Source: a virus (lineage: Duplodnaviria; Heunggongvirae; Uroviricota; Caudoviricetes). Taken from it: DNA of 14,438 nucleotides. The DNA is taken from IMG/VR virus record IMGVR_UViG_2606217109_000003, positions 1 to 14,438 of that record. The stretch is one strand, 5' to 3'. This document shows positions 1 through 14,438 of this stretch, one piece after another. How positions within the stretch are numbered: position 1 is the first letter of the stretch; each line of letters opens with the position of its first letter. The translations under genes were made by a program, and so were the position numbers. The notes beneath the pieces were generated by a model. It made no database searches. It saw nothing but the letters and a program-made list of their open reading frames with translations, and was not told the DNA's origin.

Positions 1-1152
1 ATGAGACGAACATTTACAGCAGAGGAAAAAGCCTCTGTTTTTGAACTATGGAAGAACGGAACAGGCTTCAGTGAAATAGCGAATATCCTGGGTTCAAAAC
101 CCGGAACGATCTTCACTATGTTAAGGGATACTGGCGGCATAAAACCCCATGAGCGTAAGCGGGCTGTAGCTCACCTGACACTGTCTGAGCGCGAGGAGAT
201 ACGAGCTGGTTTGTCAGCCAAAATGAGCATTCGTGCGATAGCTACTGCGCTGAATCGCAGTCCTTCGACGATCTCACGTGAAGTTCAGCGTAATCGGGGC
301 AGACGCTATTACAAAGCTGTTGATGCTAATAACCGAGCCAACAGAATGGCGAAAAGGCCAAAACCGTGCTTACTGGATCAAAATTTACCATTGCGAAAGC
401 TTGTTCTGGAAAAGCTGGAGATGAAATGGTCTCCAGAGCAAATATCAGGATGGTTAAGGCGAACAAAACCACGTCAAAAAACGCTGCGAATATCACCTGA
501 GACAATTTATAAAACGCTGTACTTTCGTAGCCGTGAAGCGCTACACCACCTGAATATACAGCATCTGCGACGGTCGCATAGCCTTCGCCATGGCAGGCGT
601 CATACCCGCAAAGGCGAAAGAGGTACGATTAACATAGTGAACGGAACACCAATTCACGAACGTTCCCGAAATATCGATAACAGACGCTCTCTGGGACATT
701 GGGAGGGCGATTTAGTCTCAGGTACAAAAAACTCTCATATAGCCACACTTGTAGACCGAAAATCACGTTATACGATCATCCTTAGACTCAGGGGCAAAGA
801 TTCTGTCTCAGTAAATCAGGCTCTTACCGACAAATTCCTGAGTTTACCGTCAGAACTCAGAAAATCACTGACATGGGACAGAGGAATGGAACTGGCCAGA
901 CATCTAGAATTTACTGTCAGCACCGGCGTTAAAGTTTACTTCTGCGATCCTCAGAGTCCTTGGCAGCGGGGAACAAATGAGAACACAAATGGGCTAATTC
1001 GGCAGTACTTTCCTAAAAAGACATGTCTTGCCCAATATACTCAACATGAACTAGATCTGGTTGCTGCTCAGCTAAACAACAGACCGAGAAAGACACTGAA
1101 GTTCAAAACACCGAAAGAGATAATTGAAAGGGGTGTTGCATTGACAGATTGA
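1..1152 (+). CDS. insI: IS30 family transposase (InsI)
   Basis: Full-length 383-aa ORF with ATG at 1 and TGA at 1150-1152; the sequence is recognisable as IS30 InsI. Confidence 0.93.
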   Translation: MRRTFTAEEKASVFELWKNGTGFSEIANILGSKPGTIFTMLRDTGGIKPHERKRAVAHLTLSEREEIRAGLSAKMSIRAIATALNRSPSTISREVQRNRGRRYYKAVDANNRANRMAKRPKPCLLDQNLPLRKLVLEKLEMKWSPEQISGWLRRTKPRQKTLRISPETIYKTLYFRSREALHHLNIQHLRRSHSLRHGRRHTRKGERGTINIVNGTPIHERSRNIDNRRSLGHWEGDLVSGTKNSHIATLVDRKSRYTIILRLRGKDSVSVNQALTDKFLSLPSELRKSLTWDRGMELARHLEFTVSTGVKVYFCDPQSPWQRGTNENTNGLIRQYFPKKTCLAQYTQHELDLVAAQLNNRPRKTLKFKTPKEIIERGVALTD

Positions 1153-1159
1153 ATCTACA
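1134..1159. repeat. IS30 right terminal inverted repeat (about 26 bp)
   Basis: Terminal sequence of the IS overlapping the 3' end of the transposase ORF; the element boundary at 1159 is defined by the switch to cII codons on the minus strand. Confidence 0.75.
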
Positions 1160-1203
1160 CTCTCGATTCGTAGTGCCTCGTTGCGTTTGTTTGCACGAAC
1201 CAT
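1160..1203 (-). pseudogene. cII: cII 5' fragment (first ~15 codons), truncated by the IS30 insertion
   Basis: Minus-strand reading from ATG (complement of 1201-1203) gives MVRANKRNEALRIES, the N-terminus of lambda CII, then runs into the IS30 end. The rest of cII must lie beyond the IS, outside the window. Confidence 0.85.
1181..1194 (+). promoter_or_regulatory. pRE CII-binding repeat TTGC-N6-TTGC (-35 region of pRE, reading toward cro antisense and cI)
   Basis: TTGCgtttgtTTGC overlaps the cII start codon, as in lambda. Confidence 0.6.
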
Positions 1204-1282
1204 ATGTAAGTATTTCCTTAGATAACAATTGATTGAATGTATGCAAATAAATGCATACACCATAGGTGTGGTTTAATTGGAT

Positions 1283-1297
1283 GCCCTTTTTCAGGGC
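1283..1297 (-). promoter_or_regulatory. nutR boxB hairpin
   Basis: GCCCTTTTTCAGGGC on the plus strand is the reverse complement of lambda nutR boxB GCCCTGAAAAAGGGC, located downstream of cro in the pR transcript. Confidence 0.75.
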
Positions 1298-1321
1298 TGT
1301 GATGTGTAAGAGCGGTGTTAT

Positions 1322-1531
<210 letters not shown>

Positions 1532-1548
1532 TTAGTACATGCAATTAT

Positions 1549-1612
1549 TATCACCGCTAGAGGTAAAACAGTCAACACGCACGGTGTTAGATATTTATCC
1601 CTTGCGGTGATA
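1549..1612. promoter_or_regulatory. Right operator OR1 (1549-1565), OR2 (1573-1589), OR3 (1596-1612) with divergent pR (toward cro) and pRM (toward cI)
   Basis: Three 17-bp lambda-type operators: TATCACCGCTAGAGGTA, CAACACGCACGGTGTTA, TATCCCTTGCGGTGATA. pR -10 GATAAT / -35 TTGACT are present on the minus strand; pRM TAGATA (1588-1593) and TAGATT (1611-1616) precede the leaderless cI ATG at 1623. Confidence 0.9.
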
Positions 1613-1619
1613 GATTTAA

Positions 1620-2336
<717 letters not shown>

Positions 2337-2375
2337 TGAAACCACTTTTATCTACAATTTACAGGGCGGTAAACA

Positions 2376-2933
2376 TTGGCAAAAATAGATGATTATCAGC
2401 CAAGCCAAGTAGAAGTTGATAAAGTACTTTATTGTAAAAAAATAGTTAACTTTTCTGGCGTTAAATGGAAACAGAAACCAAGTCGCTCTGATATGTGGCT
2501 ACAAGCTCATATCATCCCCTTGGATGAGGATTGTATACCTATACAAGGGCTAAAGTTTGAACTGAAATGGAAACCAGATCAGGATTCAGAACCTGATGAC
2601 CCGATTTCTTACCCTAAAATAAATATTATTGCTTTCTATCATAACAAGAGGGTTTTCGCGGTAGATACCTATCACTTTGACAAACACACGAATAGTTACA
2701 AGGTCGATCATCCGAAGTACCAAGATATCATTTACGGTGCTCATTACCATGTATACTATGAAGAAGCTGGATACTATAGTGATAGAATAGCGTTTCCAAT
2801 CGAAGATGACATAAACCCAGATGACCTGGTAGGGTATTGGAATTACTTCTGTAAACATCTGAACATAACTTACTCTGGGAGAATACCTTTACCGCTTGAA
2901 GATGAGTCGGGGCAAATGGGGTTTGGAATATGA
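2376..2933 (+). CDS. hypothetical protein, cassette gene A in the rexA position (185 aa, acidic, Tyr/His/Asp-rich, no TM segment)
   Basis: ORF immediately downstream of cI on the same strand. The first in-frame start is TTG at 2376 (a TAA lies in frame at 2370-2372), with a G-rich SD-like cagggcgg upstream. It overlaps the next ORF in an ATGA arrangement. Not RexA by length or sequence. Confidence 0.6.
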   Translation: MAKIDDYQPSQVEVDKVLYCKKIVNFSGVKWKQKPSRSDMWLQAHIIPLDEDCIPIQGLKFELKWKPDQDSEPDDPISYPKINIIAFYHNKRVFAVDTYHFDKHTNSYKVDHPKYQDIIYGAHYHVYYEEAGYYSDRIAFPIEDDINPDDLVGYWNYFCKHLNITYSGRIPLPLEDESGQMGFGI

Positions 2934-3682
2934 TGTGCTCAACAGTGATCTCACAACTAGGTTTCGAATGCCATCCAATAGGCAAGACCTTGAGAATTAT
3001 CAGTCCATTCACTTACTGTGATGATGGAGAGCATGTCGGTGCCTTTATCCGTGAAGTCAATGGTAGGTATTTAGTTAGTGACAGATGCGATGCCTTAATG
3101 AATATGGAGGCAAGAGGGATCTCGCTTACCAAAAAACGACTTGATGAGATACGACAATTACTGCTTAAAGAAGGCGCAGAACTCAATGCTCGAGGAGAAA
3201 TCATTGCTTGGGCAACAGAAAAGGATGTCGGTGCGATTACATCGAACATAATTAGAGCTGGTATACTCGCATCAACTTTGTCGTTAGACTGGTATCAGCC
3301 AGTTCAAGCTGAAAAGTTTGAAAGTATGGTTATTGATTATCTATATCACACAGAGCTTAGAGAGGCACTTTCTCTTCGTGAAAACGTATATGGCTTGAGT
3401 GGACATCAAATTACCGTCCCTGTAACAATAAAAACCGACATACCTAAATACGTTTTTACATCAAGCGTGAAACACGGAGGAAGCTGGAATAGTGCTTACT
3501 CATTGCTTGGGAAACTAATTGATCTTAAAGCTTCAAGTGAGGAGTATAACAACAGATTTGTTGTTATAGACAGCGAAGCAATTGGTGATCAAATGCAACA
3601 ACTCTCCTTACTCTTCCATGAATCAAGCCAAGTTCTACCATTCTCCAAAAGAGAGACTTGGATTAAGAGACTTGCAGCATAA
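2930..3682 (+). CDS. hypothetical protein, cassette gene B in the rexB position (250 aa, soluble-looking)
   Basis: ATG at 2930 (or 2933) overlaps the stop of gene A (ATGATG / TGA 2931-2933), implying translational coupling. Followed at once by a rho-independent terminator. Not RexB (RexB is a 144-aa polytopic membrane protein). Confidence 0.65.
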   Translation: MMCSTVISQLGFECHPIGKTLRIISPFTYCDDGEHVGAFIREVNGRYLVSDRCDALMNMEARGISLTKKRLDEIRQLLLKEGAELNARGEIIAWATEKDVGAITSNIIRAGILASTLSLDWYQPVQAEKFESMVIDYLYHTELREALSLRENVYGLSGHQITVPVTIKTDIPKYVFTSSVKHGGSWNSAYSLLGKLIDLKASSEEYNNRFVVIDSEAIGDQMQQLSLLFHESSQVLPFSKRETWIKRLAA

Positions 3683-3686
3683 TACA

Positions 3687-3713
3687 ACCCGGCCTCAGCG
3701 CCGGGTTTTCTTT
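3687..3713 (+). terminator. rho-independent terminator ending the cI-cassette transcript (tImm-equivalent)
   Basis: aCCCGGC-ctcagc-GCCGGGt stem-loop followed by TTTTCTTT, 5 bp after the gene B stop. Confidence 0.65.
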
Positions 3714-3870
3714 GCCTCACGATCGCCCCACCTAAAAACACATAACCAATTGTATTTATTGGAAAATAAATAGATACAACTCACTAAACAACGCAATTCT
3801 GATCTCTCCTTACATCGCCGAGGCAATACACTCACTCGAAAAAATAAATCCATATAAAAAACATACAGAT

Positions 3871-3933
3871 AACCATTTGCGGTGATAAAATATCTCTAGC
3901 GGTGTTGACACAAATACCACTAGCGGTGATACT
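3871..3933 (+). promoter_or_regulatory. Left operator OL3 (3871-3887), OL2 (3891-3907), OL1 (3915-3931) with pL (-35 TTGACA 3905-3910, -10 GATACT 3928-3933) reading toward N
   Basis: AACCATTTGCGGTGATA, TATCTCTAGCGGTGTTG, TACCACTAGCGGTGATA: lambda-type 17-mers, each with one difference from the canonical sequences as I recall them. Confidence 0.88.
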
Positions 3934-3989
3934 TAGCTCGTCAGCAGGACGCACTAACCACCATTGAAGGTGAGGCTCTTAAAAATTTA

Positions 3990-4004
3990 GCCCTGAAGAA
4001 GGGC
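3990..4004 (+). promoter_or_regulatory. nutL boxB (boxA-like GCTCTTAAAAATTTA lies just upstream at about 3975-3989)
   Basis: GCCCTGAAGAAGGGC is the lambda nutL boxB hairpin, between pL and N. Confidence 0.85.
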
Positions 4005-4114
4005 AGCATTCAAAGCAGAAAGCTTTGAGTAGCGCGAAATGCAGCTGCAAGACAGCAACCGTGGGGATAAGCATCACGGCGCGTTACTCAAAGCTAACTG
4101 ACAGGAGAATCCAG

Positions 4115-4438
4115 ATGGATGCACAAACACGCCGCCGCGAACGTCGCGCAGAGAAACAGGCTCAATGGAAAGCAGCAAATCCCCTGTTGGTTGGGGTAAG
4201 CGCAAAACCAGTTAACCGCCCTATTCTCTCGCTGAATCGCAAACCGAAATCACGAGTAGAAAGCGCACTGAATCCGATAGACCTTACAGTGCTGGCTGAA
4301 TACCACGAACAGATTGAAAGCAACCTGCAACGTATTGAGCGCAAGAATCAGCGCACATGGTACAGCAAGCCTGGCGAACGCGGCATAACATGCAGTGGAC
4401 GCCAGAAAATTAAGGGAAAATCGATTCCTCTTACCTAG
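4115..4438 (+). CDS. N: antitermination protein N
   Basis: 107-aa ORF from ATG 4115 (MDAQTRRRERRAEKQAQWKAANPLLVG...), with the arginine-rich boxB-binding motif at the N-terminus. The ORF-track start at 4025 is an upstream in-frame extension through the nutL leader. Confidence 0.95.
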   Translation: MDAQTRRRERRAEKQAQWKAANPLLVGVSAKPVNRPILSLNRKPKSRVESALNPIDLTVLAEYHEQIESNLQRIERKNQRTWYSKPGERGITCSGRQKIKGKSIPLT

Positions 4439-4993
4439 TTACTTAGATATTGGCCTTGGCTTTATCTCAATATTATATGGATCATAGCTGGCAACTAATT
4501 CAGTCCAGTAAATATCCTCAATAGGGAATAATATATGCTTCCCGTTCCATCGGGAAAAAGTTTTGTTCAACACACCAAGCTCAATCAACTCACTAATGTA
4601 TGGGAATTGTTTTGATGTAACCACATACTTCCTGCCTTCATTAAGGGCTGCGCACAAAACCATAGATTGCTCTTCTGTAAGGTTTTGAATTACCGATCGC
4701 ACTTTATCGTTTTGCATCTTAATGCGTTTTCTTAGCTTAAATCGCTTATATCTGGCGCTGGCAATAGCTGATAATCGATGCACATTAATTGCTAGCGAAA
4801 ATGCAAGAGCAAAGACGAAAACATGCCACACATGAGGAATACCGATTCTCTCATTAACATATTCAGGCCAGTTATCTGGGCTTAAAAGCAGAAGTCCAAC
4901 CCAGATAACGATCATATACATGGTTCTCTCCAGAGGTTCATTACTGAACACTCGTCCGAGAATAACGAGTGGATCCATTTCTATACTCATCAA
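4439..4993 (-). CDS. sieB: superinfection exclusion protein B (membrane protein)
   Basis: 184-aa minus-strand ORF with two hydrophobic segments, at the lambda sieB position (convergent with N, between N and ral). The exact start is uncertain (MMSIEM... versus the internal MDPLV...). Confidence 0.8.
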   Translation of the reverse strand: MMSIEMDPLVILGRVFSNEPLERTMYMIVIWVGLLLLSPDNWPEYVNERIGIPHVWHVFVFALAFSLAINVHRLSAIASARYKRFKLRKRIKMQNDKVRSVIQNLTEEQSMVLCAALNEGRKYVVTSKQFPYISELIELGVLNKTFSRWNGKHILFPIEDIYWTELVASYDPYNIEIKPRPISK

Positions 4994-5117
4994 ACTGTAG
5001 GGGTTGTAATAGTTTATCCGATTTCTCGCTGTAGGGGTACACGAGAACCACCGAGCCTGATGTGGTTAAAAGACAGGCACAATCTTTACTACCGCAATCC
5101 ACTATTTAAGGTGATAT

Positions 5118-5204
5118 ATGGAAGAAGAATTTGAAGAGTTCGAAGAGCATCCGCAGGATGTAATGGAACAGTACCAGGACTATCCGTATGACTACGACTA
5201 TTGA
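5118..5204 (+). CDS. small acidic ORF, 28 aa (lambda orf28-like)
   Basis: ATG 5118 to TGA 5202-5204 encodes MEEEFEEFEEHPQDVMEQYQDYPYDYDY and overlaps the ral start. Below the 60-aa cutoff of the ORF track, found by reading the sequence. Confidence 0.5.
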   Translation: MEEEFEEFEEHPQDVMEQYQDYPYDYDY

Positions 5205-5367
5205 TAAGAATCAATGGTGTGGACAATTCAAGCGATGCAATGGATGCAAGCTGCAATCGGAATGCATGGTTAAGCCTGAAGAAATGTTTCCTGTAATGGA
5301 AGATGGGAAATATGTCGATAAATGGGCAATACGAACGACGGCAATGATTGCCAGAGAACTTGGTTAA
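5188..5367 (+). CDS. ral: restriction alleviation protein Ral, apparently truncated at codon 60
   Basis: MTTTIDKNQWCGQFKRCNGCKLQSECMVKPEEMFPVMEDGKYVDKWAIRTTAMIARELG, then TAA (5365-5367). The next codons in frame read QNNKAA then TGA (5386-5388), which matches the C-terminus of the 66-aa lambda Ral as I recall it. Confidence 0.75.
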   Translation: MTTTIDKNQWCGQFKRCNGCKLQSECMVKPEEMFPVMEDGKYVDKWAIRTTAMIARELG

Positions 5368-5524
5368 CAGAACAACAAAGCTGCCTGATAGTGGCCTTTC
5401 TTTTTGGCATAAATAACAGAATAAACACTGCACTGTGTATTCATTCCAACGAGTGAATACACGGAGCAATGTCGCTCGTAACTAAACAGGAGCCGACTTG
5501 TTCTGATTATTGGAAATCTTCTTT

Positions 5525-5551
5525 GCCCTCCAGTGTGAGGGCGATTTTTTA
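5525..5551 (+). terminator. rho-independent terminator in the early-left transcript (tL-type)
   Basis: GCCCTC-cagtgt-GAGGGC stem-loop followed by gATTTTTTAT. Confidence 0.6.
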
Positions 5552-5570
5552 TCTATGAGGATATGAACAG

Positions 5571-5939
5571 ATGTCAAACATCAAAAAATACATCATTGAT
5601 TACGACTGGAAAGCATCAATAGAAATTGAAATCGACCATGACGTAATGACAGAGGAAAAACTTCACCAGATTAATAATTTCTGGTCAGACTCTGAATACC
5701 GACTCAATAAACACGGCTCTGTATTAAATGCTGTATTAATCATGCTGGCGCAACATGCTCTGCTTATAGCAATTTCAAGCGACTTAAATGCATATGGTGT
5801 TGTGTGTGAGTTCGACTGGAATGATGGAAATGGTCAGGAAGGATGGCCTCCAATGGATGGTAGCGAAGGAATAAGAATTACCGATATCGATACATCAGGA
5901 ATATTTGATTCAGATGATATGACTATCAAAGCCGCCTGA
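5571..5939 (+). CDS. ea10: early-left protein Ea10-like (122 aa)
   Basis: 369-bp ORF with SD tGAGGA, at the position and with the length of lambda ea10 between ral and cIII. Confidence 0.65.
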   Translation: MSNIKKYIIDYDWKASIEIEIDHDVMTEEKLHQINNFWSDSEYRLNKHGSVLNAVLIMLAQHALLIAISSDLNAYGVVCEFDWNDGNGQEGWPPMDGSEGIRITDIDTSGIFDSDDMTIKAA

Positions 5940-6011
5940 GCGCGGCGTTACCGCATACCAATAACGCTTCACTCGAGGCGTTTTTCGTTATGTATAAATA
6001 AGGAGCACACC

Positions 6012-6176
6012 ATGCAATATGCCATTGCAGGGTGGCCTGTTGCTGGCTGCCCTTCCGAATCTTTACTTGAACGAATCACCCGTAAATTACGTGACGGATG
6101 GAAACGCCTTATCGACATACTTAATCAGCCAGGAGTCCCAAAAAATGGATCAAACACTTATGGCTATCCAGACTAA
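6012..6176 (+). CDS. cIII: CIII (FtsH inhibitor stabilising CII)
   Basis: 54-aa [57 protein letters not shown] with SD AAGGAG. It is below the ORF-track cutoff; the 6019-6288 track ORF is a different-frame artefact running into kil. Confidence 0.9.
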   Translation: MQYAIAGWPVAGCPSESLLERITRKLRDGWKRLIDILNQPGVPKNGSNTYGYPD

Positions 6177-6288
6177 ATTCACTATCGCCACTTTTATTGG
6201 CGATGAAAAGATGTTTCGTGAGGCCGTCGACGCTTATAAAAAATGGATATTAATACTGAAACTGAGATCAAGCAAAAGCATTCACTAA
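6145..6288 (+). CDS. kil: Kil (host cell-division inhibitor)
   Basis: 47-aa [50 protein letters not shown] overlapping the cIII 3' end and the gam 5' end, as in lambda. Confidence 0.85.
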
Positions 6289-6659
6289 CCCCCTTTCCTG
6301 TTTTCCTAATCAGCCCGGCATTTCGCGGGCGATATTTTCACAGCTATTTCAGGAGTTCAGCCATGAACGCTTATTACATTCAGGATCGTCTTGAGGCTCA
6401 GAGCTGGACGCGTCACTACCAGCAGCTCGCCCGTGAAGAGAAAGAGGCAGAACTGGCAGACGACATGGAAAAAAGCCTGCCCCAGCACCTGTTTGAATCG
6501 CTATGCATCGATCATTTGCAACGCCACGGGGCCAGCAAAAAAGCCATTACCCGTGCGTTTGATGACGATGTTGAGTTTCAGGAGCGCATGGCAGAACACA
6601 TCCGGTACATGGTTGAAACCATTGCTCACCACCAGGTTGATATTGATTCAGAGGTATAA
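6243..6659 (+). CDS. gam: Gam (RecBCD inhibitor)
   Basis: 138-aa ORF recognisable as lambda Gam ([55 protein letters not shown]...). Confidence 0.95.
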
Positions 6660-6664
6660 AACGG

Positions 6665-7450
6665 ATGAGTACAGCACTCGCAACGCTGGCTGGGAAGCTG
6701 GCTGAACGTGTCGGCATGGATTCTGTCGACCCACAGGAACTGATCACCACTCTTCGCCAGACGGCATTTAAAGGTGATGCCAGCGATGCGCAGTTCATCG
6801 CATTGTTGATCGTCGCCAACCAGTACGGCCTTAATCCGTGGACGAAAGAAATTTACGCCTTCCCTGACAAGCAGAACGGCATCGTTCCGGTGGTGGGCGT
6901 TGATGGCTGGTCCCGTATCATCAATGAAAACCAGCAGTTTGATGGCATGAACTTTGAGCAGGACAATGAATCATGTACATGCCGGATTTACCGCAAGGAC
7001 CGTAATCATCCGATCTGCGTTACCGAGTGGATGGATGAATGCCGCCGCGAACCATTCAAAACCCGCGAAGGCAGAGAAATCACCGGACCGTGGCAGTCGC
7101 ATCCCAAACGGATGTTACGGCATAAAGCCATGATTCAGTGTGCCCGTCTGGCCTTCGGATTTGCTGGTATCTATGACAAGGATGAAGCCGAGCGCATTGT
7201 CGAAAATACTGCATACACTGCAGAACGTCAGCCGGAACGCGACATCACTCCGGTTAACGATGAAACCATGCAGGAGATTAACACTCTGCTGATCGCCCTG
7301 GATAAAACATGGGATGACGACTTATTGCCGCTCTGTTCCCAGATATTTCGCCGCGACATTCGCGCATCGTCAGAACTGACACAGGCCGAAGCAGTGAAAG
7401 CTCTTGGATTCCTGAAACAGAAAGCCACTGAGCAGAAGGTGGCAGCATGA
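6665..7450 (+). CDS. bet: Red beta single-strand annealing protein
   Basis: 261-aa ORF recognisable as lambda Beta; its stop overlaps the exo start (ATGA). Confidence 0.97.
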
Positions 7451-8127
7451 CACCGGACATTATCCTGCAGCGTGCCGGGATCGACGTGAGAGCTGTCGAA
7501 CAGGGAGATGATGCGTGGCACAAATTACGGCTCGGCGTCATCACAGCTTCAGAAGTTCATAACGTAATAGCAAAACCCCGCTCCGGAAAAAAGTGGCCTG
7601 ACATGAAAATGTCCTACTTCCACACCCTGCTGGCTGAGGTTTGCACCGGTGTGGCTCCGGAAGTTAATGCTAAGGCGCTGGCCTGGGGAAAACAGTACGA
7701 GAACGACGCCAGAGCCCTGTTTGAGTTTACTTCCGGCGTGAATGTTACTGAATCCCCGATCATCTATCGCGACGAAAGTATGCGCACCGCCTGCTCTCCC
7801 GATGGTTTATGCAGTGACGGCAACGGCCTTGAACTGAAATGCCCGTTTACCTCCCGGGATTTCATGAAATTCCGGCTCGGTGGTTTCGAGGCCATAAAGT
7901 CGGCTTACATGGCCCAGGTGCAGTACAGCATGTGGGTGACGCGAAAAGATGCCTGGTACTTTGCCAACTATGACCCACGAATGAAGCGTGAAGGCCTGCA
8001 TTATGTCGTGGTTGAGCGGGATGAAAATTACATGGCGAGTTTTGACGAGATGGTGCCGGAGTTCATCGAAAAAATGGACGAGGCACTGGCTGAAATTGGT
8101 TTTGTATTTGGGGAGCAATGGCGATGA
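7447..8127 (+). CDS. exo: Red alpha 5'-3' exonuclease
   Basis: 226-aa ORF recognisable as lambda Exo (MTPDIILQR...GEQWR). Confidence 0.97.
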
Positions 8128-8306
8128 CGCATCCTCACGATAATATCCGGGTGGGCGCGATCACTTTCGTCTACTCCATTACAAAGCGAGGCTGGGTATT
8201 TCCCGGCCTTTCTGTTATCAGAAATCCCCTGAAAGCACAGCGACTGGCTGAGGAGATAAATAATAAACGGGGAGCTGTATGCACAAAGCATCTCCCGTTG
8301 AGTTAA
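8124..8306 (+). CDS. small early-left protein, lambda orf60a-like (60 aa from ATG 8124)
   Basis: ATG 8124 overlaps the exo stop (ATGA); the 183-bp length matches lambda orf60a. The ORF-track start at 8118 is two codons further upstream. Confidence 0.6.
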
Positions 8307-8470
8307 GAACGAGTATCGAGATGGCACATAGCCTCGCTCAAATTGGAGTCAGGTTTGTGCCAATATCAGTAGAAACAGACGAAGAATTTCATACGTTAGC
8401 CGCATCCCTTTCACAAAAGCTGGAAATGATGGTGGCGAAAGCAGAAGCAGATGAGAGAGACCAGGTATGA
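8279..8470 (+). CDS. small early-left protein, lambda orf63-like (63 aa)
   Basis: 192-bp ORF overlapping the 3' end of the preceding ORF, at the lambda orf63 position. Confidence 0.6.
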   Translation: MHKASPVELRTSIEMAHSLAQIGVRFVPISVETDEEFHTLAASLSQKLEMMVAKAEADERDQV

Positions 8471-8550
8471 CAACCACTGAATGCATTTTTCTGGCAGCGG
8501 GCTTCATATTCTGTGTGCTTATGCTTGCCGACATGGGGCTTGTTCAATGA
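8467..8550 (+). CDS. putative small hydrophobic peptide (27 aa)
   Basis: MTTTECIFLAAGFIFCVLMLADMGLVQ; the ATG overlaps the stop of the upstream ORF (ATGA) and its own stop overlaps the next ATG (ATGA). Hydrophobic enough for a single TM helix. Confidence 0.3.
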   Translation: MTTTECIFLAAGFIFCVLMLADMGLVQ

Positions 8551-8762
8551 CACCTCAGCAAGAAAACGCCCTTCGCAGCATTGCCCGTCAGGCTAATTCT
8601 GAAATCAAAAAAGCCAGACAGCAGTTTCCGGATAAAAACGTCGATGACATTTGCCGTAGCGTACTAAAGAAGCACCGCGAAACGGTAACGCTGATGGGAT
8701 TCACACCGACTCATTTAAGCCTGGCGATCGGCATGTTGAACGGCGTCTTTAAGGAACGGTGA
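8547..8762 (+). CDS. hypothetical small basic protein (71 aa from ATG 8547; a 93-aa upstream extension is possible)
   Basis: ORF-track ORF 8481-8762. I prefer the internal ATG at 8547, which is translationally coupled to the upstream small ORF. Lies in the lambda orf61 region but the ORF structure differs from what I recall for lambda. Confidence 0.45.
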   Translation: MTPQQENALRSIARQANSEIKKARQQFPDKNVDDICRSVLKKHRETVTLMGFTPTHLSLAIGMLNGVFKER

Positions 8763-8860
8763 ACATGAAAAGCAAAATCATCAGGGAGCTACAGGCTCCT
8801 TTTTTATTATTCGCATTCACCCTCAAGCGTATTAACCAACAATTCAGGGATTAATGAAAG

Positions 8861-9082
8861 ATGGCAGACATAATTGATTCAGCATCAGAAATTGAAGAAT
8901 TACAGCGCAACACAGCAATAAAAATGCGCCGCCTGAACCACCAGGCTATATCTGCCACTCATTGTTGTGAGTGTGGCGATCCGATAGATGAACGAAGACG
9001 ACTGGCCGTTCAGGGTTGTCGGACTTGTGCCAGTTGCCAGCAAGATCTGGAGCTTATCAGTAAACAGAGAGGTTCGAAGTGA
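8861..9082 (+). CDS. TraR/DksA-family C4 zinc-finger protein (lambda Orf73-like)
   Basis: 73-aa ORF with CCECGDPID...CRTCASC, the typical TraR/DksA C-terminal zinc finger, at the position of lambda orf73. Confidence 0.8.
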   Translation: MADIIDSASEIEELQRNTAIKMRRLNHQAISATHCCECGDPIDERRRLAVQGCRTCASCQQDLELISKQRGSK

Positions 9083-9486
9083 GCGAAATTAACTCTCAGG
9101 CACTGCGTGAAGCGGCAGAGAAAGCCGGTGAAGATAAGTGGCAGGCTAAAAAAATAAATGGTGATTTTTTCGTTATTCGTCACGGTAGTTATACAAGACA
9201 GCATGGCTACACATCGTATCAACCCATTGCGGAGATTGATTGTAAGCCAGTCCGGGATTTTGTTGCCAAGGCTAATCCGGCTACCGTGCTGGAATTACTG
9301 GATGAACTGGAAGCAGCAAAAAAGCGCATTGCAGAACTGGAAGCGCGGGAAATACTGCTCCCGGAACGTAGCAGCATGCTTCATCGAACAGATTTTCACG
9401 ATGATTACCAAACGGTAATGGCATACAAAGTTTCTGAAGTCATCGATGCAATCCGCGCTACTGGCATTCGCATCAAAGGAGAGTGA
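9079..9486 (+). CDS. ea22: Ea22-like protein, short allele (135 aa, GTG start)
   Basis: Begins (M)SEINSQALREAAE and ends IRIKGE like lambda Ea22 as I recall it, but is about 47 aa shorter than the 182-aa lambda protein. Central coiled-coil segment (ATVLELLDELEAAKKRIAELEAREIL). The GTG start overlaps the orf73 stop (GTGA). Confidence 0.6.
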   Translation: MSEINSQALREAAEKAGEDKWQAKKINGDFFVIRHGSYTRQHGYTSYQPIAEIDCKPVRDFVAKANPATVLELLDELEAAKKRIAELEAREILLPERSSMLHRTDFHDDYQTVMAYKVSEVIDAIRATGIRIKGE

Positions 9487-9487
9487 G

Positions 9488-10243
9488 ATGATTCACTACC
9501 ACGGTGGGCCTATTACTCCTGATACGTGCGCAATGAGAGCATGGAAAGGGCGACATGCGTTTATCAGTTTTGCGCATTCAGGCCAGATCAATCTCGCGGC
9601 TGAATACTGTCAGTCGTTCGCGCTGGACAACGGTGCATTCACCGCCTGGAAAGCAGCTGGCAAAAACAAAATCGACTGGAGCGATTACTACGAGTTTGTT
9701 GCTCGCTGGAAGAATCACCCAGGATTCGATTTTGCCATTATCCCGGATGTTATTGATGGCGGAGAGGAGGAAAATGATGCGCTTCTGAATGAGTGGCCTC
9801 ACGGAAAACTAGCTGGCGTTCCAGTGTGGCACATGAATGAAAGTGACGAGCGATTTATTCATTTGTGCAATGAGTTTCCGCGAGTGGCTATCGGTAGTTG
9901 TGGCGACTATGACGTAAAGCGCCCAACTCTTGCGGTAGCCAGAATGAAAGACCTGATTCGTCACATTGTTGATGGGCATGGTCAGCCGGTTACGAAACTA
10001 CATGGATTGCGCATGTTAAATCCGCTGATATTCACAAAATTACCCTTAGCCAGCGCAGATAGTACGAACGTCGCTCGAAACATCGGTATTGATAAAGCCT
10101 GGTCTGGGGCTTATGCACCTGCAAGTAAAGAGACACGCGCAGCATTAATGGTAGAACGGATTGAGGCACACAATAGCCCTGGTTCTCTTGCGTATTGTGA
10201 ACAACGCGACCGCTTTGAAATGCAATTGCAACTAGCAGTTTAA
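9488..10243 (+). CDS. hypothetical protein with tRNA-guanine transglycosylase (TGT)/DpdA-like motifs (251 aa)
   Basis: ATG 9488 with strong SD AAGGAGAG, 1 bp after the ea22 stop. The motifs FALDNGAF and ADSTNVARNIG resemble TGT DSGGFQ and D...TRNARNG in the same order and with similar spacing. No counterpart in lambda as I recall it. The functional call is a hypothesis. Confidence 0.65.
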   Translation: MIHYHGGPITPDTCAMRAWKGRHAFISFAHSGQINLAAEYCQSFALDNGAFTAWKAAGKNKIDWSDYYEFVARWKNHPGFDFAIIPDVIDGGEEENDALLNEWPHGKLAGVPVWHMNESDERFIHLCNEFPRVAIGSCGDYDVKRPTLAVARMKDLIRHIVDGHGQPVTKLHGLRMLNPLIFTKLPLASADSTNVARNIGIDKAWSGAYAPASKETRAALMVERIEAHNSPGSLAYCEQRDRFEMQLQLAV

Positions 10244-10253
10244 GGACTAACAA

Positions 10254-10829
10254 ATGACCACTATTACCAAAGAACGTATTGAATTGTTCATTAAAAATCC
10301 GCTTGAAAACGGGCTTACTCGTGGCGAACAAATGGAACTGGCACGAATTGCACTGGCATCACTGGGAGCAGAACCTGTAAGCCAAACTTACAACTTGCCA
10401 GAATTAATCGAAGGCATGGAGGTTTCCATTGATGTAAGCACTTGTGATGCGGATTTAGGTAATCGCTATTTCGGTACCGTCACCGAGGCGTTAGAACTTG
10501 ATACTGCCAAGAATGGTTACATCCTCCTGGTTCAGGACGCAGAGCCAAACTTCGATATAAATGGCAATTCTCCGGTAACTCCGGATGGTTGGGTTATAGT
10601 GCCGAAGAAACTAACCGCTGAGAACGGCGCTAAGGGTGTGCTATCCGGTGAATTTTCAGAAACTACGTTTATAAGCTGCCCGGAATGCTTTGGTGATGAT
10701 GATTGCGAAACTTGTGACGGCAGCGGAAGAATCGAAATCAAGGTTCCAGTCAGTTGGACAACTATCAAAACTATTTGGGCTAAAGGGTGTGAGTACTTTT
10801 CAATAGTAGCACCGCAGCAAGATGGGTGA
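10254..10829 (+). CDS. hypothetical acidic protein with C-terminal zinc-ribbon-like CPEC...CETCDGSG motif (191 aa)
   Basis: ATG 10254 with SD TAAGGA, 10 bp after the previous stop. CxxC-N8-CxxCxGxG motif. No lambda counterpart as I recall it. Confidence 0.65.
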   Translation: MTTITKERIELFIKNPLENGLTRGEQMELARIALASLGAEPVSQTYNLPELIEGMEVSIDVSTCDADLGNRYFGTVTEALELDTAKNGYILLVQDAEPNFDINGNSPVTPDGWVIVPKKLTAENGAKGVLSGEFSETTFISCPECFGDDDCETCDGSGRIEIKVPVSWTTIKTIWAKGCEYFSIVAPQQDG

Positions 10830-10913
10830 TGAAAACAAGTATTTATAACTTAAAAGCATTAAAAAATCGCTTATAGATCAAAAGAAATCTACGTCAAATA
10901 TTACTATATTTCA

Positions 10914-11198
10914 ATGTGTTATAATTACCCCGTCCATAAAATGGGGGGACACAAAATGTTCAAACGCTGCATCACCAAGTGTGGAAGCACACCTGACATC
11001 CAAGCTTTTATTAATGAAGATGGTAAGCTTGTTGTTGAGAGGAGTGGTCCTTTTATTAGCAAACAACTTATCATTACCTCTCCAGCGGAGATGGCCGGGG
11101 AATGGATAGTTTCTGAACCAGAGGAGTTGCACATCCCGCTTCCTTATGGCCCTCAGGGACTGATTTATAACCGTTATGTTCAGAAGGAGGCGGGTTGA
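10914..11198 (+). CDS. hypothetical small protein (94 aa, or 80 aa from ATG 10956)
   Basis: ORF preceded by an AT-rich, promoter-like intergenic region (10830-10913). Cys/His-rich N-terminus if 10914 is used; a G-rich SD-like run precedes the ATG at 10956. Confidence 0.45.
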   Translation: MCYNYPVHKMGGHKMFKRCITKCGSTPDIQAFINEDGKLVVERSGPFISKQLIITSPAEMAGEWIVSEPEELHIPLPYGPQGLIYNRYVQKEAG

Positions 11199-11457
11199 CA
11201 ATGTCAGGCATAACATCGCCGAGAAATCGAAAGAAAAACAGAACAAGGTAAACGTTGACCTTGCAGCATCAGGCATGGAGTACAGAGAGCGCCTTAACAT
11301 ACCTGTTATCACTGAGCAGGTATCATGAGAGCAACCTGAGCACTCACGCGAGTATTTCATGGAGCGCATCAGATACTATCGCGAGCAGTCGTTAAACATG
11401 CCCAAGGGAAGCAACCCATGGTATATCGATATGGATGAACAGAACGCCAAGAAGTAA
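11176..11457 (+). pseudogene. ea8.5: ea8.5-position ORF (93 codons) interrupted by a single in-frame TGA at codon 51
   Basis: ATG 11176 to TAA 11455-11457 is exactly 282 bp with one in-frame TGA (11326-11328). Both halves have protein-like, helical, charged composition. Size and distance from xis match the lambda ea8.5 coordinates as I remember them. Confidence 0.4.
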
Positions 11458-11477
11458 ACGCAATTTGAACGAATGCG

Positions 11478-11503
11478 AACCCGCCGAGTGCGGGTTTTCT
11501 TTT
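11478..11503 (+). terminator. rho-independent terminator
   Basis: aaCCCGC-cgagt-GCGGGtt followed by TTTCTTTT, 20 bp after the ea8.5-position stop. Confidence 0.55.
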
Positions 11504-11546
11504 ATCTGAACTCGCTACGGCGAGTTTTGTTTTATGGCGATGATAA

Positions 11547-11714
11547 ATGCACTTCCGAGTTACAGGTGAATGGAATGGAGAACCATTCAACAGAGTTATC
11601 GAAGCCGAGAACATCAGCGACTGCTATAACCACTGGATGCTGTGGGCGCAGATAGCACATGCAGACGTAACCAATATTCGAATTGAAGAACTGAAAGAAC
11701 ACCAAGCCGCCTGA
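11547..11714 (+). CDS. small ORF, 55 aa (hypothetical; lies between ea8.5 and xis)
   Basis: MHFRVTGEWNGEPFNRVIEAENISDCYNHWMLWAQIAHADVTNIRIEELKEHQAA; protein-like composition but weak SD. Not in the ORF track (under 60 aa). Confidence 0.4.
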   Translation: MHFRVTGEWNGEPFNRVIEAENISDCYNHWMLWAQIAHADVTNIRIEELKEHQAA

Positions 11715-11727
11715 TGGCGGTTTTTTC
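11706..11727 (+). terminator. rho-independent terminator upstream of xis
   Basis: GCCGCC-tgat-GGCGG followed by TTTTTTCTT. Confidence 0.5.
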
Positions 11728-11753
11728 TTGCGTGTAATTGCGGAGACTTTGCG

Positions 11754-11972
11754 ATGTACTTGACACTTCAGGAGTGGAACGCTCGCCAGCGACGCCCAAG
11801 AAGCCTTGAAACAGTTCGTCGATGGGTGCGCGAATGCAGGATATTCCCTCCTCCGGTTAAGGATGGAAGAGAATATCTGTTCCACGAATCAGCGGTAAAG
11901 GTTGACTTAAATCGACCAGTAACAGGTAGCCTTTTGAAGAGGATCAGAAATGGGAAGAAGGCGAAGTCATGA
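11754..11972 (+). CDS. xis: excisionase
   Basis: 72-aa ORF MYLTLQEWNARQRRPRSLETVRRWVRECRIFPPPVKDGREYLFHESAVKVDLNRPVTGSLLKRIRNGKKAKS, matching lambda Xis as I recall it; overlaps the int start. Confidence 0.97.
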   Translation: MYLTLQEWNARQRRPRSLETVRRWVRECRIFPPPVKDGREYLFHESAVKVDLNRPVTGSLLKRIRNGKKAKS

Positions 11973-13020
11973 GCGCCGGGATTTACCCCCTAACCTTTAT
12001 ATAAGAAACAATGGATATTACTGCTACAGGGACCCAAGGACGGGTAAAGAGTTTGGATTAGGCCGAGACAGGCGAATCGCAATCACTGAAGCTATACAGG
12101 CCAACATTGAGTTATTTTCAGGACACAAACACAAGCCTCTGACAGCGAGAATCAACAGTGATAATTCCGTTACGTTACATTCATGGCTTGATCGCTACGA
12201 AAAAATCCTGGCCAGCAGAGGAATCAAGCAGAAGACACTCATAAATTACATGAGCAAAATTAAAGCAATAAGGAGGGGTCTGCCTGATGCTCCACTTGAA
12301 GACATCACCACAAAAGAAATTGCGGCAATGCTCAATGGATACATAGACGAGGGCAAGGCGGCGTCAGCCAAGTTAATCAGATCAACACTGAGCGATGCAT
12401 TCCGAGAGGCAATAGCTGAAGGCCATATAACAACAAACCCTGTCGCTGCCACTCGCGCAGCAAAATCAGAGGTAAGGAGATCAAGACTTACGGCTGACGA
12501 ATACCTGAAAATTTATCAAGCAGCAGAATCATCACCATGTTGGCTCAGACTTGCAATGGAACTGGCTGTTGTTACCGGGCAACGAGTTGGTGATTTATGC
12601 GAAATGAAGTGGTCTGATATCGTAGATGGATATCTTTATGTCGAGCAAAGCAAAACAGGCGTAAAAATTGCCATCCCAACAGCATTGCATGTTGATGCTC
12701 TCGGAATATCAATGAAGGAAACACTTGATAAATGCAAAGAGATTCTTGGCGGAGAAACCATAATTGCATCTACTCGTCGCGAACCGCTTTCATCCGGCAC
12801 AGTATCAAGGTATTTTATGCGCGCACGAAAAGCATCAGGTCTTTCCTTCGAAGGGGATCCGCCTACCTTTCACGAGTTGCGCAGTTTGTCTGCAAGACTC
12901 TATGAGAAGCAGATAAGCGATAAGTTTGCTCAACATCTTCTCGGGCATAAGTCGGACACCATGGCATCACAGTATCGTGATGACAGAGGCAGGGAGTGGG
13001 ACAAAATTGAAATCAAATAA
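11950..13020 (+). CDS. int: tyrosine integrase
   Basis: 356-aa ORF recognisable as lambda Int (N-terminal arm-binding domain, C-terminal catalytic domain with the R...HxxR...Y signature). Confidence 0.97.
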   Translation: MGRRRSHERRDLPPNLYIRNNGYYCYRDPRTGKEFGLGRDRRIAITEAIQANIELFSGHKHKPLTARINSDNSVTLHSWLDRYEKILASRGIKQKTLINYMSKIKAIRRGLPDAPLEDITTKEIAAMLNGYIDEGKAASAKLIRSTLSDAFREAIAEGHITTNPVAATRAAKSEVRRSRLTADEYLKIYQAAESSPCWLRLAMELAVVTGQRVGDLCEMKWSDIVDGYLYVEQSKTGVKIAIPTALHVDALGISMKETLDKCKEILGGETIIASTRREPLSSGTVSRYFMRARKASGLSFEGDPPTFHELRSLSARLYEKQISDKFAQHLLGHKSDTMASQYRDDRGREWDKIEIK

Positions 13021-13108
13021 TGATTTTATTTTGACTGATAGTGACCTGTTCGTTGCAACAAATTGATAAGCAATGCTTTTTTATAATGCCAACTTAGTAT
13101 AAAAAAGC
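13021..13108. other. attL: attL: prophage P' arm (Int arm-type and IHF sites) plus the 15-bp core TTAGTATAAAAAAGC (13094-13108)
   Basis: The core is the reverse complement of the lambda att core GCTTTTTTATACTAA. An arm-type site TGATAGTGACCTG lies at about 13036-13048. Host ybhC sequence begins about 47 bp after the core. Confidence 0.85.
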
Positions 13109-13154
13109 AGGCTTCAACGGATTCATTTTTCTATTTCATAGCCCGGAGCAACCT

Positions 13155-14438
13155 GTGAACACATTTTCAGTTTCCCGTCTGGCGCTGGCATTGGCTTTTG
13201 GCGTGACGCTGACCGCCTGTAGCTCAACACCACCCGATCAACGTCCTTCTGATCAAACCGCGCCTGGTACCTCTTCTCGCCCGATTCTGTCGGCAAAAGA
13301 AGCGCAGAATTTCGATGCTCAACACTATTTTGCATCCCTGACACCAGGTGCTGCAGCGTGGAATCCTTCCCCGATTACCCTGCCTGCGCAACCTGACTTT
13401 GTTGTCGGCCCGGCGGGTACTCAAGGTGTAACGCATACCACGATTCAGGCGGCGGTAGATGCGGCAATTATCAAGCGCACTAACAAGCGCCAGTATATTG
13501 CCGTGATGCCTGGTGAGTATCAGGGAACGGTGTATGTCCCTGCTGCTCCGGGTGGAATTACTCTGTACGGTACAGGTGAAAAACCGATTGATGTGAAGAT
13601 TGGGCTTTCCCTTGATGGGGGCATGAGCCCTGCCGACTGGCGTCACGACGTCAACCCGCGCGGCAAATATATGCCAGGTAAACCAGCGTGGTATATGTAC
13701 GATAGCTGCCAGAGCAAACGCAGCGACAGTATCGGTGTTCTCTGCTCTGCGGTCTTCTGGTCACAAAACAATGGCCTGCAACTGCAAAATCTGACCATCG
13801 AAAACACGCTGGGCGATAGCGTAGATGCAGGTAACCATCCGGCGGTGGCACTGCGTACTGATGGTGACCAGGTACAGATTAACAACGTTAACATTCTCGG
13901 TCGTCAGAACACCTTCTTTGTCACCAACAGCGGTGTGCAGAACCGTCTGGAAACCAACCGTCAGCCGCGTACGCTGGTGACCAACAGCTACATTGAAGGG
14001 GATGTGGATATCGTTTCTGGTCGCGGCGCAGTGGTGTTCGATAACACCGAATTCCGCGTGGTGAACTCACGTACTCAGCAAGAAGCGTATGTGTTTGCAC
14101 CGGCTACGCTGTCCAACATTTACTACGGTTTCCTCGCCGTAAACAGCCGTTTCAATGCTTTCGGTGATGGTGTGGCGCAACTGGGCCGCTCGCTGGATGT
14201 TGATGCCAATACCAACGGTCAGGTGGTGATCCGTGATAGCGCCATCAACGAAGGTTTTAACACGGCTAAACCGTGGGCCGATGCGGTGATCTCTAATCGT
14301 CCGTTTGCGGGTAATACCGGCAGCGTAGATGATAACGACGAAATACAGCGCAATCTGAATGACACTAACTACAACCGCATGTGGGAATACAATAACCGCG
14401 GCGTGGGTAGTAAAGTGGTTGCAGAGGCGAAGAAGTAA
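13155..14438 (+). CDS. ybhC: host outer-membrane lipoprotein YbhC (pectinesterase-fold family)
   Basis: 427-aa ORF with GTG start and lipoprotein signal (lipobox LTAC). Degenerate pectinesterase-like motifs (GEYQGTVYV, AVALR, DIVSG). It is the gal-side neighbour of att-lambda in E. coli. Confidence 0.88.
   Translation: MNTFSVSRLALALAFGVTLTACSSTPPDQRPSDQTAPGTSSRPILSAKEAQNFDAQHYFASLTPGAAAWNPSPITLPAQPDFVVGPAGTQGVTHTTIQAAVDAAIIKRTNKRQYIAVMPGEYQGTVYVPAAPGGITLYGTGEKPIDVKIGLSLDGGMSPADWRHDVNPRGKYMPGKPAWYMYDSCQSKRSDSIGVLCSAVFWSQNNGLQLQNLTIENTLGDSVDAGNHPAVALRTDGDQVQINNVNILGRQNTFFVTNSGVQNRLETNRQPRTLVTNSYIEGDVDIVSGRGAVVFDNTEFRVVNSRTQQEAYVFAPATLSNIYYGFLAVNSRFNAFGDGVAQLGRSLDVDANTNGQVVIRDSAINEGFNTAKPWADAVISNRPFAGNTGSVDDNDEIQRNLNDTNYNRMWEYNNRGVGSKVVAEAKK

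Follow-up and report, generated by a model that had tools for sequence, protein, structure and literature searches.

What the two genes do that stand in place of rexA-rexB in an otherwise lambda-like immunity region is the question raised by a DNA stretch of 14,438 nucleotides (nt), positions 1 to 14,438 of IMG/VR record IMGVR_UViG_2606217109_000003. This stretch, called the window below, is a lambda-type prophage that reads in the leftward direction of lambda, and the two genes, designated A and B, form a cassette directly 3' of its cI repressor gene. On balance, the cassette would seem to be a two-protein anti-phage (superinfection) defence operon that acts in the lysogen and replaces rexAB. 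This reading is preferred because the cassette occupies the exact slot, has a deep linkage to repressors, shows modular exchange and allelic divergence, encodes a probable nuclease-fold domain, and is scored as defence by two independent predictors.

The replaced segment (window 2338-3685) is exactly rexA-rexB, because lambda homology ends at the cI stop codon (window 2337, equal to lambda 37226) and returns at window 3686 (lambda 35826), which is the first base past the stop of rexB (lambda 35825-36259). No DNA homology to lambda was found between the cI stop and tIMM when the window was aligned with lambda. The original prediction had placed the cassette in the rexA-rexB slot, and this was correct to the base. 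It had also placed a rho-independent terminator after gene B, which is present there (hairpin at 3686-3707 with a T tract); the hairpin has a fold energy of -17 kcal/mol (z = -3.4) and, by its homology, is lambda's own tIMM. As for the six lambda-type operators claimed, five sites matched the lambda operator pattern with up to three mismatches, in a search that did not include OR2. The description of the region as AT-rich agrees with a G+C content of 37-43% across the cassette versus 51-54% in bet/exo, but the lambda immunity region is AT-rich in general, and the low value therefore says little alone.

Both genes were predicted as open reading frames (ORFs) from the letters of the window, and RefSeq annotates the same coding sequences in Escherichia coli Nissle 1917: gene A of 558 bp (WP_001062368.1) and gene B of 753 bp (WP_000968518.1, 'DUF1828 domain-containing protein'). 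The TTG start assigned to gene A at 2376 holds, as all homologues begin with M-A-K at this site. The TGA of gene A (2931-2933) and the ATG of gene B (2930-2932) overlap by 4 nt (ATGA), and translational coupling through this overlap, as proposed earlier, agrees with the survey of other loci: gene A lies directly 5' of gene B with the identical 4-nt overlap in 97 out of 97. These loci comprise the window, genomes of E. coli, Aeromonas, and other bacteria, and 80 IMG/VR viral contigs. In a single locus, L042, gene A is frameshifted and gene B intact. The gap of 39 nt between cI and gene A is identical in the E. coli loci.

The pairing extends to far more distant relatives. On the contigs checked for five protein A representatives with 21-25% identity, the next gene is of DUF1828 type and codes for 231-258 amino acids (aa); one of the five has no precomputed Pfam hit. 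Gene B overlaps gene A in four of them and lies 59 nt 3' in the fifth. Pseudomonas D3-like phage VB_PaD_phPA-G (AC No. PP083311.1; locus L105, 2920-3504) has an unannotated ORF of 194 aa whose product is a homologue of protein A, with the R, D, H-x-N, and H-x-H positions retained, and this ORF overlaps the annotated gene B homologue by 4 nt. The identity values of A and of B, taken pair by pair, are strongly correlated (r = 0.93, 43 unique pairs). Within a pair the two values are at most 0.25 apart, and A and B are thus not reassorted with each other. In 96.5% of comparisons, gene A evolves faster than gene B. When orthologues were compared, synonymous sites were saturated in both genes (pS 0.70-0.93) while the proportion of nonsynonymous differences was low (pN 0.08-0.45), which marks A and B as real genes and not chance ORFs; the ratio of nonsynonymous to synonymous rates (dN/dS), where estimable, is 0.03-0.2 for both. 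Purifying selection on A and B is strong.

Such a compact operon, whose two genes are strictly co-inherited and keep their 4-nt overlap, would also suit a toxin-antitoxin or addiction module that stabilises the prophage, with one partner toxic, the other neutralising, and phage exclusion as a by-product. The start codon of gene A is GTG or TTG in 30 out of 31 distinct upstream contexts (ATG in one), always followed by Ala-Lys; such a consistent weak start suggests selection for low synthesis of A or a low A:B ratio, with B translated by coupling, and an A/B ratio that matters would fit an addiction module. Moreover, the DUF1829-containing protein DS-6B was proposed as the antitoxin-like partner of the HipA-family kinase DS-6A (PMC13092281). 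An addiction module nevertheless seems unlikely: searches of Pfam, NCBIfam, and PADLOC linked neither A nor B to a known toxin or antitoxin family, the two proteins exceed the usual size of classical type II components, and locus L042 indicates that loss of A is not obviously lethal. Toxin-antitoxin and abortive-infection roles are not mutually exclusive.

Protein B consists of an N-terminal DUF1828 domain with a YbjN/type III chaperone-like fold and a probable C-terminal DUF1829 domain with a PD-(D/E)xK fold. Residues 26-110 match Pfam DUF1828 (PF08861) above the gathering threshold, the AlphaFold model has two domains with a predicted local distance difference test score (pLDDT) of 83, and HHpred values given for the RefSeq protein in Table S5 of the DefensePredictor study are 99.5% for DUF1828 and 98.8% for DUF1829 (clan PDDEXK) (PMC13092281). 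Invariant across distant homologues are S25, P26, D32, D51, E90, and I91 in the DUF1828 domain and F130, S157, G158, W186, and D198 in the remainder of the protein, where H159, T177, and R209 are nearly invariant. H159 opens strand 2, and K173, which opens strand 3, varies among distant homologues. The full length of the protein matches the PADLOC model PDC-M24B with an expectation value (E) of 5.8e-10 (residues 2-248 on profile positions 4-253 of 256), and a second PDC-M24B model matches it with E = 1.1e-7.

Protein A is acidic (isoelectric point 5.3) and beta-rich. Its family-wide invariant residues are K22, W31, R92, D97, N106, G121, H123, H125, F158, and P173, and H104 is nearly invariant. 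The Asp/His/Asn/His-x-His cluster formed by D97, H104, N106, and H123-x-H125 suggests a metal-dependent active or sensing site. Residues 104-164 match Pfam DUF6978 (PF22398) with 22.0 bits, and residues 104-163 match PADLOC PDC-M24A weakly (E = 4.8e-4, profile positions 79-134 of 148). Among 15 diverse members of the protein A family, five match DUF6978 at E <= 0.01 and one to three match each of three PDC-M24A models, with no other family matched; the matches of protein A and its distant relatives fall on the conserved His/Asn/His-x-His core. Judged from these profiles, protein A is probably a distant relative of DUF6978 and PDC-M24A. The earlier view that no family could be assigned to either protein thus does not hold, B being DUF1828 plus, probably, DUF1829 and A probably a distant DUF6978 relative.

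Other searches gave little. In PHROGs, protein A matches only phrog_2017 and protein B only phrog_1960, both of 'unknown function'; NCBIfam has no family for either; and among viral models the sole significant match of protein A is one uncharacterised siphovirus protein. A search of solved structures with sequence profiles of A (profiles A3 and A4) and B (profile A2) returned nothing meaningful. The designed Kelch-like propeller 8pjr had a low E value and was rejected, as the value was summed over six repeats, each of which alone has E = 32-120. The protein A family is small, with just 20 cluster representatives at E <= 0.001 in an exhaustive profile search of 1.84 billion proteins. In agreement with the original prediction, neither protein has a transmembrane helix; the highest 19-residue Kyte-Doolittle score is 0.45 in A and 1.19 in B.

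The linkage of the cassette to repressor genes is as constant as its pairing. Among 44 distinct ORFs immediately 5' of the cassette, HTH_3 was found in 38 and Peptidase_S24 in 37, and identity of these repressors to lambda cI goes down to 13%. The order repressor-A-B is present also in Aeromonas caviae prophages, in a distant prophage of GCA_001998905.1, and on metagenomic contigs; in VB_PaD_phPA-G, a CI-like repressor is followed by one extra gene of 216 aa and then by the A-B pair. In total, the linkage holds in dozens of immunity types, in phages of hosts as far apart as E. coli, Aeromonas, and Pseudomonas. No terminator and no above-chance promoter was found between cI and the cassette, and the cassette itself contains no more promoter-like sites than chance predicts (6 seen, 6.1 expected). 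Because the cassette lies in the exact slot, on the strand of cI, with no terminator or promoter between them, and ends at tIMM, the natural inference is that cI, A, and B are co-transcribed from pRM in the lysogen as far as tIMM.

A same-strand Peptidase_S24 repressor immediately 5' is the sole context feature kept family-wide, even at 21% identity, and it would fit an accessory of the lysis-lysogeny switch that modulates repressor stability, SOS-dependent induction, or the establishment of lysogeny and does not act on foreign phages. The comparison of loci makes this role improbable. The window is homologous (97.9%) to Nissle 1917 (L001) and phage PhiR57_1 (L002) from mid-cI (1926) to 3847, and to locus L040 over 2309-3804 only (98.8%), where the cassette lies behind an unrelated repressor. 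Conversely, L093 has a lambda-type cI (93.6% nt identity to the window) and OL enclosing a cassette allele only about 52% identical in protein; both L093 and L095 (IMG/VR contigs, about 2387-5044) hold deeply diverged alleles of the pair in a lambda-type immunity frame. Cassettes of 98-99% nt identity thus stand behind unrelated repressors, and a 52%-identical allele is accommodated by the lambda cI/OL frame, so that cassette and repressor are not matched to each other. Furthermore, lambda works without the cassette and has an exclusion system in the same place, and the domain content (nuclease fold, chaperone-like fold) is unlike that of known switch components. The repressors of Nissle 1917 and PhiR57_1 have the C-terminal Peptidase_S24 half in common with lambda cI but a different N-terminal DNA-binding half, and are therefore chimeric and of different immunity.

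Such modular exchange combined with allelic divergence would be as expected of conflict-related cargo. The slot between cI and N is a documented mosaic hotspot, which also holds BstA and RexAB (PMC8585504). A repeat search for a self-immunity element like aba gave only short two-copy matches at chance level.

At 99% identity or more, the cassette is present in 241 out of 5426 complete E. coli genomes, in one copy per genome and always on the chromosome, and is commoner in this collection than rexAB, which was found in 99 of the same genomes. It is also present in seven phage records, including a Stx1a-converting phage (Stx, Shiga toxin). The strains and phages with the cassette include probiotic Nissle 1917 and phages PhiR57_1 and PhiR63_2 (PV340572 and PV340574; host ECOR13), which probably come from Brenes & Laub 2025. 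Relatives with 47-84% protein identity occur in Salmonella, Yersinia, Providencia, Xenorhabdus, Photorhabdus, Serratia, Klebsiella, Pantoea, Edwardsiella, Thorsellia, and Aeromonas. A contig of 518 bp labelled Actinomadura rugatobispora (L016, NZ_JBHSON010000334.1) holds the last part of A and the first part of B, with 82% identity to the enterobacterial proteins; it is most likely a contamination of the actinomycete assembly.

As commensal, probiotic, and pathogenic E. coli carry the cassette alike, it might be thought of as a moron, that is, a lysogenic-conversion gene pair with a role outside phage biology, for instance in host fitness or stress. The cI-N slot does carry non-defence cargo in some lambdoid phages. 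We consider this quite improbable, however, as the family is essentially confined to immunity regions of temperate phages, its modular exchange and allelic divergence are typical of conflict systems, and two independent defence predictors score the pair as defence.

In Tables S5 and S10 of one of these predictors, DefensePredictor (Science 2026), the exact RefSeq proteins carry the label 'Predicted novel defense gene': protein B (WP_000968518.1) with log-odds of 5.6 and protein A (WP_001062368.1) with 4.9-5.4 (PMC13092281). With PADLOC, in which the pair is a relative of a listed candidate, two computational screens have already catalogued it, and the term 'undescribed' used for the system in the original prediction does not fully hold. 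The cassette is a well-supported defence candidate of unproven function and mechanism. Full-text literature on DUF1828, DUF1829, DUF6978, PDC-M24, and both WP accessions contained no functional study; a study of Nissle 1917 tested another gene of the same prophage and explicitly left the remaining genes untested (PMC5987069).

If the cassette is a defence operon, the lysogen would express A and B on the cI transcript, from pRM to tIMM, and the two proteins would work only together, probably in a complex. In protein B, DUF1828 would bind a protein or ligand, and the nuclease-fold DUF1829 would bind, or unconventionally cleave, nucleic acid. Protein A, kept at a low level by its conserved non-ATG start, would supply a probable metal-dependent catalytic or sensing site from its Asp/His/Asn/His-x-His residues. 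An infecting phage would trigger the pair, and phage replication would then be blocked by direct attack on nucleic acid or by abortive infection. A bolder proposal makes the cassette a new abortive-infection or interference system in which A, with its metal site and a fold without solved relative, is the effector, B, with its degenerate nuclease fold and chaperone-like domain, senses a phage component and controls A, and the whole is a commoner occupant of the rex slot than RexAB in natural E. coli; this is put forward tentatively and is open to considerable doubt.

Several points weigh against a defence function. The pair is absent from Tables S6-S8 of DefensePredictor, which hold the 94 tested units (PMC13092281), and the literature searched, which did not cover Brenes & Laub 2025, contained no experimental evidence of phage resistance. 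PDC-M24 itself is only a computational candidate, and the matches of protein A to DUF6978 (gathering cut-off 29.6 bits) and PDC-M24A fall under the curated thresholds. A conserved D...(D/E)xK motif is absent from the nuclease-fold domain of protein B when distant homologues are compared, and protein B as a classical nuclease effector is not supported, because this catalytic signature is not conserved. Finally, a place behind the repressor suits a regulatory or addiction function equally well. The defence interpretation is reasonable but unproven; it was partly pre-empted by PADLOC and DefensePredictor and would be no surprise to a specialist.

If it is true, RexAB and BstA would be joined in the classic cI-N slot by a third occupant of distinct mechanism, one that complete E. 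coli genomes carry more than twice as often as rexAB. The cassette would give the first function for DUF1828 and for the DUF6978-like family, and the first test of the PADLOC PDC-M24 class. As it is carried by Nissle 1917 and by a Stx1-converting phage, it could affect phage therapy, the spread of Stx phages, and probiotic engineering. The deep linkage to S24 repressors provides a simple rule for finding more cargo expressed in lysogens.

The features of the window are summarised in Table 1. Homology to lambda starts only at window 1158 (lambda 38405), inside cII; this leaves cII truncated, and the prophage is probably either defective in the establishment of lysogeny or rearranged. With the superinfection-exclusion gene sieB near N, the immunity region would hold two functions of exclusion type, provided that the cassette is one of them. 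The two ORFs between the Ea22-like gene and xis/int represent additional uncharacterised cargo in the position of the b region of lambda.

Table 1. Features of the window and its blocks collinear with lambda (positions are those of the window unless stated).
Feature	Position	Strand	Remarks
IS30-family transposase, complete	within 1-1157 (gene 1-1152)		383 aa; HTH_38 and rve; adjoins the prophage
Collinear block 1	1158-2337		lambda 38405-37226; 96.4% nt identity
cro	1322-1522	minus	
OR operators and pRM/pR region	1549-1612		5' of cI; lambda operator matches at 1549-1565 and 1596-1612; 96% identity to lambda
pR-like promoter	1575-1547	minus	
cI repressor	1623-2336	plus	237 aa; lambda immunity type; HTH_3 and Peptidase_S24
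cI-to-A spacer	2337-2375	plus	39 nt; purine-rich AGGGCGG at 2363-2369 ahead of TTG
Gene A	2376-2933	plus	185 aa; TTG start
Gene B	2930-3682	plus	250 aa
Rho-independent terminator	3686-3713 (hairpin 3686-3707 and T tract)	plus	homologous to lambda tIMM 3' of rexB
Collinear block 2	3686-4027		lambda 35826-35496; 88.3% identity
OL1-3 operators and pL	3871-3933		downstream slot boundary; operator matches at 3871-3887, 3891-3907, and 3915-3931
pL-like promoter	3905-3933		
Collinear block 3	4089-6473		lambda 35386-33002; 99.2% identity
N	inside ORF ending at 4438		
sieB	4439-4993	minus	Pfam SieB, E = 1e-29; just past N
ORF without Pfam match	9446-10243	plus	265 aa; between Ea22-like gene and xis/int
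ORF without Pfam match	10254-10829	plus	191 aa; between Ea22-like gene and xis/int
Recombination genes, xis, int, then chromosomal gene at end	rest of window		

Among known systems, RexA-RexB of lambda shares with the cassette the slot, the strand, and the terminator, and both consist of two genes expected on the cI transcript in the lysogen. There is no similarity in sequence or fold, and neither A nor B matches a Rex model in PADLOC or Pfam. RexB is described as an ion channel (PMC8585504); a mechanism based on membrane depolarisation is unlikely for the cassette, because neither of its proteins has a transmembrane segment, unlike RexB. BstA of prophage BTP1 and its relatives is likewise conserved directly 3' of the prophage repressor, with which it presumably shares the promoter (PMC8585504), but it is a single protein, whereas two are present here, and the BstA model of PADLOC is not matched by A or B.

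Another likeness is to the PADLOC candidate PDC-M24, a computational proposal of the same two-gene architecture, with the genes adjacent and co-oriented. Protein B matches it at full length, while the match of protein A is weak and covers about a third of the PDC-M24A model; the pair is probably a divergent relative of PDC-M24. The present clade is small and tied to prophage repressors. From the PD-(D/E)xK nucleases, such as the restriction enzymes NgoMIV, PspGI, and BstEII and the proteins Can2 and Bax1, the family of protein B differs in having no conserved catalytic D...(D/E)xK signature. In the validated two-gene system DS-6 (HipAD), one partner ends in DUF1829 (PD-(D/E)xK clan), as protein B probably does (PMC13092281); there, DUF3037 is the N-terminal domain and the other partner a HipA-family kinase, whereas in the cassette DUF1828 takes the N-terminal position and the DUF6978-like protein A is the partner. 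DS-34, also validated in the DefensePredictor study, is a unit described as 'CI repressor + hypothetical protein' (PMC13092281).

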